Source: Escherichia coli
GTDB taxonomy: Bacteria > Pseudomonadota > Gammaproteobacteria > Enterobacterales > Enterobacteriaceae
DNA: 64,000 nt
NCBI RefSeq assembly: GCF_024700885.2
Contig: NZ_CP117016.1
Direction: 5' to 3' (one strand)
Part shown: positions 10,909 to 11,744 of the stretch, piece after piece
Layout: each line of letters begins with the position of its first letter
Numbering within the stretch: the first letter of the stretch is position 1
Notes under the pieces: generated by a model
Databases searched by the model: none
What the model was told of the DNA's origin: nothing
What the model saw: the letters and a program-made list of their open reading frames with translations, nothing else
Program-made: the position numbers and the translations under genes

Positions 10909-10934
10909 AACACTCCCCTGTAAAATAATAAATA

Positions 10935-10951
10935 AAGTGGTCTGACCTGAT
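10935..10951. promoter_or_regulatory. putative FadR operator upstream of fadIJ
   Basis: AAGTGGTCTGACCTGAT resembles the FadR consensus (TGGTCNGACCTG core), about 30 bp upstream of the fadI start. Confidence 0.45.
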
Positions 10952-11088
10952 CATAGTCTTAACCATTTTTTTACATTTAGCCAAGTGGAGAAAAGGGAAA
11001 GTGGGAGCTATGACACAGAGAGAAAAGTAGAAGAGAAAATAAAACGCCCCTGCCAACAACTGACAGGGGCGTACGTACCCGAGAGGAA

Positions 11089-11373
11089 TTAACGCAGACC
11101 CAGCTGGAAGATCAGCATTTCAGCTTCGCAGGCAAAAGTGAAATCGATATCCAGGCGCACACCGTCAGACTCTTCAGTGAAAGTCGGGGTGATTTTGCAC
11201 GGTTCGGATTCCACGCTACGGGCTTTTTCAGTCAGCGCCGCCAGCGTTTGTTCTGCTTCTGCGCGGTTTGCAAACACGCGGCTGTAAGACGCGGTGCAGT
11301 CGGAGTTGTCCATAATGGTGCCAACATCCATACAGCAGCAAACCGGGGTTTCATCAGCACTACATTTACTCAT
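11089..11373 (-). CDS. yfcZ: small conserved protein YfcZ (UPF0381 family)
   Basis: 94 aa from internal Met (MSKCSADETPVCCCMD…); the track ORF starts 8 codons upstream, but I recall the annotated protein as 94 aa. Confidence 0.8.
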   Translation of the reverse strand: MSKCSADETPVCCCMDVGTIMDNSDCTASYSRVFANRAEAEQTLAALTEKARSVESEPCKITPTFTEESDGVRLDIDFTFACEAEMLIFQLGLR

Positions 11374-11618
11374 CGTTGATTTCCTCTGTATGTGCACCCA
11401 AGGTGCCAGATAAACGTTGTGGATATTTTACGCTTCCGGAAAGTGCTGCTCCAGTTGTTAATTCTGCAAAATCGGATAAGTGACCGAAATCACACTTAAA
11501 AATGATCTAAAACAAAATTCACCCGAATCCATGAGTGCGCCACCTCCAAATTTTGCCAGCTGGATCGCGTTTCTTAGATCATATTTGAAAAAAGATAGAA
11601 ACATACTTGCAACATTCC

Positions 11619-11659
11619 AGCTGGTCCGACCTATACTCTCGCCACTGGTCTGATTTCTA
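11619..11659. promoter_or_regulatory. two putative FadR operators in the fadL promoter
   Basis: AGCTGGTCCGACCTATA (11619-11635) and CACTGGTCTGATTTCTA (11643-11659), both matching the FadR TGGTCNGA core, 85-125 bp upstream of fadL. Confidence 0.5.
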
Positions 11660-11744
11660 AGATGTACCTCAGACCCTACACTTCGCGCTCCTGTTACAGC
11701 ACGTAACATAGTTTGTATAAAAATAAATCATTGAGGTTATGGTC

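Follow-up and report, generated by a model that had tools for sequence, protein, structure and literature searches.

The window analysed here, a stretch of 64,000 nucleotides, holds the segment of the Escherichia coli chromosome with fadJ and fadI, yfcZ and fadL. Window positions 10800-11800 were found at 95% identity or higher in 5425 of 5426 complete E. coli genomes. RefSeq records that are 100% identical annotate this part as fadI, yfcZ and fadL. Compared with K-12, it has 8 differing positions in 951 bp, and 0 of these fall inside any of the three boxes that are the subject of this analysis. Table 1 lists the features.

The interval from 10909 to 11738 contains the fadI promoter, the yfcZ terminator, yfcZ itself, the yfcZ promoters and the fadL promoter. 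Given that it holds a gene and its terminator, this is not a single divergent intergenic region. The terminator sets yfcZ apart from the fadI promoter. The start codon of fadL differs by record: it is ATG 11739 in K-12 (448 aa) and ATG 11745 in the PGAP annotation of strain ST2747.

Table 1 Features of the fadI-yfcZ-fadL locus, in window coordinates.
Feature	Position	Strand	Basis or remark
fadJ	7454-9598	-	follows fadI; ORF list and RefSeq annotation
fadI (3-ketoacyl-CoA thiolase), coding sequence	9598-10908	-	ORF list; RefSeq annotation of 100%-identical genomes
fadI box, FadR operator of the fadIJ promoter, AAGTGGTCTGACCTGAT	10935-10951	-	best PWM match in the window; conservation; position relative to the TSS
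fadI transcription start	10948	-	NC_000913.2 2458531; 40-nt leader; 3 reads only
fadI core promoter (putative)	10955-10984	-	-35 TTGGCT (10984-10979), -10 TAAGACT (10961-10955)
Intrinsic terminator of yfcZ	11044-11072	-	13-pair stem, then T-run
yfcZ (DUF406, uncharacterised)	11089-11373	-	annotation; sits between the two fad promoters
yfcZ published transcription starts	11418 and 11584	-	Kim et al. 2012; 11584 minor, 10 reads
-35-like block TTGCAAC, fadL promoter (inferred)	11607-11613	+	at least 95% column identity in 78 species
fadL site 1, FadR operator, AGCTGGTCCGACCTATA	11619-11635	+	PWM rank 2; EMSA probe fadL-FadR1; conservation
fadL site 2, FadR operator, CACTGGTCTGATTTCTA	11643-11659	+	PWM rank 10; EMSA probe fadL-FadR2; conservation
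fadL transcription start	11644	+	NC_000913.2 2459227; 95-nt leader to ATG 11739; 248 reads
fadL	11739-13085	+	ORF list; annotation

Three boxes and their match to known FadR sites

The first-pass annotation of this DNA had claimed FadR-type operators at both the fadIJ and the fadL promoter, with one site upstream of fadI and two upstream of fadL. The strings are indeed present at these places, and the claim is borne out by PWM scoring, mapped transcription starts, conservation, identity with K-12 and, for fadL, published EMSA probes. What does not carry over is the 12-mer core it quoted, TGGTCTGACCTG. This core occurs only once, in the fadI box (10938-10949), and the fadL boxes have the variants TGGTCCGACCTA and TGGTCTGATTTC.

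In gene orientation, the fadI box reads ATCAGGTCAGACCACTT, which is a near-perfect palindrome. Its centre lies 35 nt upstream of the fadI ATG (10908, minus strand). The two fadL boxes also occur once each, upstream of the fadL ATG (11739/11745), 24 bp apart from centre to centre and separated by a 7-bp gap.

The FadR consensus, aaCTGGTCnGACC(T/A)Gtt, is a 17-bp imperfect palindrome. The fadI box agrees with it at 14/16 positions, fadL site 1 at 13/16 and fadL site 2 at 11/16, where site 2 is canonical in its left half-site only. A useful yardstick is the fadBA operator ATCTGGTACGACCAGAT, the site of the FadR-DNA crystal structures. It is the same 17-bp palindrome of the TGGTnnnACCA type, also in a repressor position and also at a beta-oxidation operon. 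The fadI box differs from it by having C/G beside the central base (GGTCAGACC versus GGTACGACC), and the fadL promoter differs in having two weaker boxes instead of one strong one.

For scoring, a PWM was built from six FadR sites that lie outside the window: fadBA, two of fadD, fabA, fabB and fadE. The first five are from the gel-shift probes in PMC4259882 Table 2, and the fadE site is from the sequence printed in PMC10272880. The scan ranked about 128,000 window positions, and expectations were taken from shuffled windows. The fadI box came out at rank 1 with 16.3 bits, where 0.047 matches are expected per shuffled window. It is followed at rank 2 by fadL site 1, with 14.2 bits and 0.44 expected. 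Site 2 scores 10.5 bits at rank 10, and since about 9 such matches are expected per shuffled window, it is at background level and not significant alone. The PWM scan that had been suggested as a check thus singles out two of the three boxes and is silent on the third. The chance of a match of the strength of site 2 within 40 bp of fadL site 1 is about 0.011.

The next-best PWM matches were dismissed as chance. One, at 58311-58327, is inside nupC coding DNA, and the other, at 9962-9978, is within fadI coding DNA.

A comparison with K-12 records had also been proposed, and in MG1655 all boxes are identical. The fadI 17-mer is found at NC_000913.3 2460496-2460512, fadL site 1 at 2461180-2461196 and fadL site 2 at 2461204-2461220. 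At fadL, the boxes correspond to OL1 and OL2 of the K-12 promoter (DiRusso et al. 1993; Feng & Cronan 2012, PMC3460868), with the same sequences, the same 7-bp gap and the same TSS position, and there is no box difference. At fadIJ, also known as yfcYX, the K-12 FadR site (Campbell, Morgan-Kiss & Cronan 2003, per PMC9329746) is an identical 17-mer that likewise overlaps the start site, again with no difference.

The gel-shift probes used with FadR by Feng & Cronan and by Zhang et al. are identical to window DNA. From PMC4259882 Table 2, probe fadL-FadR1 equals window 11609-11643 and has site 1 inside, and probe fadL-FadR2 equals window 11636-11670 and has site 2 inside. FadR affinity is reported to be equal for both fadL sites, and binding there is abolished by 25-50 uM oleoyl-CoA (PMC3460868). 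For the fadI box, we infer direct FadR binding second-hand, through the review PMC9329746, which credits the site to Campbell et al. 2003. A literature search for FadR ChIP-exo data yielded nothing relevant.

Promoter positions and conservation

Transcription starts were taken from the supplementary table of Kim et al. 2012 (PMC3415461), where the window coordinate is the NC_000913.2 coordinate minus 2,447,583. The upstream sequences printed in that table agree with the window. For fadL, PMC3460868 puts the start 95 bp upstream of the ATG, which is concordant. The Cappable-seq supplement (PMC4782308) has no coordinates at the fadI-yfcZ-fadL locus.

A consensus sigma-70 scan missed both promoters, that of fadI and that of fadL. 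Their hexamers are weak or oddly spaced, and the promoters were therefore placed from the published starts. For the fadI core promoter, conserved blocks of the 78-species alignment described below were used as well.

Box positions were recomputed relative to these starts. The fadI box spans -3 to +14 of the fadI start. At fadL, site 1 spans -25 to -9 and overlaps the -10 hexamer TATACT (11632-11637), while site 2 spans -1 to +16 and covers the start itself. Mapped starts that place the boxes outside the promoters would have spoken against operators, and the opposite is seen: all three lie over promoters of fatty-acid genes in a repressor position, overlapping -10 or +1. The review PMC9329746 similarly states that fadL and fadIJ are directly repressed by FadR, with sites that overlap the start sites.

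For conservation, a scan with the FadI protein over one genome per species delivered 80 Enterobacterales loci, ranging from Escherichia to Yersinia, Serratia, Photorhabdus and Hafnia. The comparison set consists of the 78 loci with sufficient upstream DNA. In all 78, fadL is divergent from yfcZ-fadI, and yfcZ is syntenic in 76.

When the DNA upstream of fadI is scored with the PWM, the orthologous box comes first in 78/78 loci, mostly at a distance of 23-57 nt from the ATG. Within it, AGGTCnGACC is invariant, the central base can be A, T, C or G, and at the position where the consensus permits A or T the split is 60:18. Of the 174 17-mers in the 190 nt preceding fadI, the box is the most conserved (rank 1), with a mean column identity of 0.954 versus 0.54-0.81 in the flanks.

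Upstream of fadL, an unconstrained search finds the two boxes as the best PWM pair at 24-bp spacing in 69 of the loci. At the fixed 24-bp offset, the upstream box is recognisable in at least 75/78 and degenerate in 3. Site 2 keeps CACTGGTC and G10 without exception, and its central T occurs in 97% of the loci. The most conserved 17-mers upstream of fadL start at 11621 and at 11642-11643, which are both boxes. The boxes show purifying selection, in phase with the FadR consensus. Some of the conservation at the TATA of site 1 and in the +1 region of site 2 is probably shared with constraints on the core promoter.

This last point can be pushed further, by reading the matches as chance, above all fadL site 2, and their conservation as the product of core promoter, start-site and leader constraints. 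The background score of site 2 fits such a reading. In addition, site 1 shares DNA with the -10 hexamer and site 2 with +1, elements that are conserved for reasons of their own, and the entire fadL leader is fairly conserved, at 0.83 mean column identity. Against this, the window's two best PWM matches are both in fad promoters, one in each. Two copies of the degenerate pattern CTGGTCYGAYNT are present in 64 kb, both at fadL, where dinucleotide shuffles lead one to expect 0.11, an enrichment of about 18-fold. The columns without variation make up the FadR contact core CTGGTC.G, whereas the central N varies, and an isolated site 2 probe was shifted by FadR in published gel shifts (PMC3460868; PMC4259882). 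It is hardly credible that chance and promoter constraints account for all of this. That site 2 is a FadR site despite its background PWM score is supported by its adjacency to site 1, its near-total conservation and the published gel shifts.

Some other conserved sequence is present around the fadL promoter. The sequence GATCnCGTTT (window ~11564-11573) has fixed positions with 82-100% column identity in the 78 species, and is not FadR-like. It was considered as a third FadR box, 84 bp upstream of the site 2 centre, and rejected, as it is without a TGGTC/GACC core. The fadL 5' leader (11660-11738) has several blocks of at least 95% identity in the same 78 species, for example CCCTAC, CTGTTAC and GTAACA. 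These may be related to the reported regulation of fadL by OmpR and RybB.

FadR and related regulators

It is very probable that the three boxes are the operators through which FadR natively acts on the fadIJ and fadL promoters of E. coli. The gene for FadR itself is elsewhere on the E. coli chromosome, outside the window, and its presence in E. coli is established. A FadR dimer, of the GntR family and with a winged-helix N-terminal domain, would sit on each 17-bp box. At fadIJ this would be a single near-palindromic box over the transcription start, and at fadL two boxes, over the -10 hexamer and the start site. Bound FadR would then block RNA polymerase, presumably sterically. Imported fatty acid is converted by FadD to long-chain acyl-CoA, the ligand of the FadR C-terminal domain. 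With acyl-CoA bound, FadR leaves the DNA, and the fad genes are derepressed.

The first-pass annotation went on to suggest FadR repression of anaerobic beta-oxidation and of fatty-acid uptake. Repression of both fadIJ and fadL agrees with the literature (PMC9329746, PMC3460868), and FadR-dependent induction of fadIJ by long-chain fatty acid is described in the first of these, a review. At fadL, repression is only modest (PMC3460868), and published data have fadL expression up about 2-fold in a fadR W60G strain. The word 'anaerobic' fares less well. As applied to FadIJ, 'anaerobic beta-oxidation' is a historical label that is contested. According to the 2022 review (PMC9329746), ArcA represses fadIJ in anaerobiosis, fadIJ is regulated like fadBA, and the anaerobic role is doubtful.

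FadR has paralogues in the same subfamily of GntR proteins, and two of these, LldR and PdhR, have boxes of a like consensus type, AAnTGGTCnGACCAnTT and AATTGGTnnnACCAATT. Both also have in vitro SELEX peaks at this locus. One could therefore propose that the boxes are mainly operators for LldR (lactate, at fadL) and PdhR (pyruvate, at fadI), with FadR in a secondary role.

There is published material in this direction. Genomic SELEX of LldR led to the same two fadL 17-mers being given as LldR boxes, at 11/14 and 9/14, and LldR-dependent activation of fadL and yfcZ has been reported (PMC10272880). In our comparison the fadI box matches the LldR consensus even better, at 12/14. For PdhR, there is a SELEX peak between fadI and yfcZ, and fadI mRNA is lower in a pdhR mutant (PMC7660256). 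The boxes match the PdhR consensus at 10/14 (fadI box), 10/14 (site 1) and 7/14 (site 2).

These are weaker matches than those to the FadR consensus, to which all three boxes are closer, and the effectors are different ones. The literature describes LldR and PdhR as activating these genes, yet the boxes are at repressor positions (-10/+1). The SELEX peaks of both proteins are low; the LldR peak is 6.6 at fadL versus 62.9 at lldP (PMC10272880). For the fadL boxes, FadR binding and release by acyl-CoA have been demonstrated (PMC3460868). Finally, the boxes follow the FadR regulon across species (PMC5343134). The same paper notes that the only FadR-regulon operons that Shewanellaceae share with Enterobacteriales and Vibrionales are fadIJ and fadL. 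A leading role for LldR and PdhR is thus highly improbable. As secondary binders of boxes that serve FadR, they are possible.

The PdhR box proposed for fadI in PMC7660256 (cAgcGGTaaaACCtgac, 10888-10904) falls within the coding part of fadI and agrees with the PdhR consensus at 7/14. The fadI FadR box is 40 bp away from it, and because it is the better match, at 10/14, it may be what gives rise to the PdhR SELEX peak, going by consensus agreement.

The boxes described here are operators that had been curated and studied by experiment before, and as such they are textbook material and already known. The tie that FadR makes between fatty-acid uptake, beta-oxidation and the availability of acyl-CoA is equally textbook. 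The value of the exercise is that of a positive control: a small independent PWM, public TSS data and phylogenetic footprinting cleanly recover established operators. These FadR sites are also employed in synthetic fatty-acid biosensors.

yfcZ and possible wider reach

The gene yfcZ lies between the two fad promoters, and 43 bp separate its divergent start at 11584 from the centre of fadL site 1, which lies upstream. FadR acts as an activator at fabA from a position that is roughly like this -43. The -10 of the yfcZ promoter at 11584 is poorly conserved. One might imagine that the boxes are shared sensors that reach past fadIJ and fadL, with yfcZ in a combined unit that responds to acyl-CoA, lactate and pyruvate. 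This is speculative, and we consider it unlikely.

CRP also has a site in this region. The one for fadL was validated by Feng & Cronan, who called it atypically distant, with its centre at -157 from the fadL TSS (PMC3460868). For fadIJ, a carbon-limitation paper is cited as the source of a CRP site, and fadI is absent from its main text. The fadL CRP site is AGTGAccgaaaTCACA (11479-11494), which is only some 68.5 bp ahead of the yfcZ start at 11418. Given this distance, the site may serve yfcZ as much as fadL.
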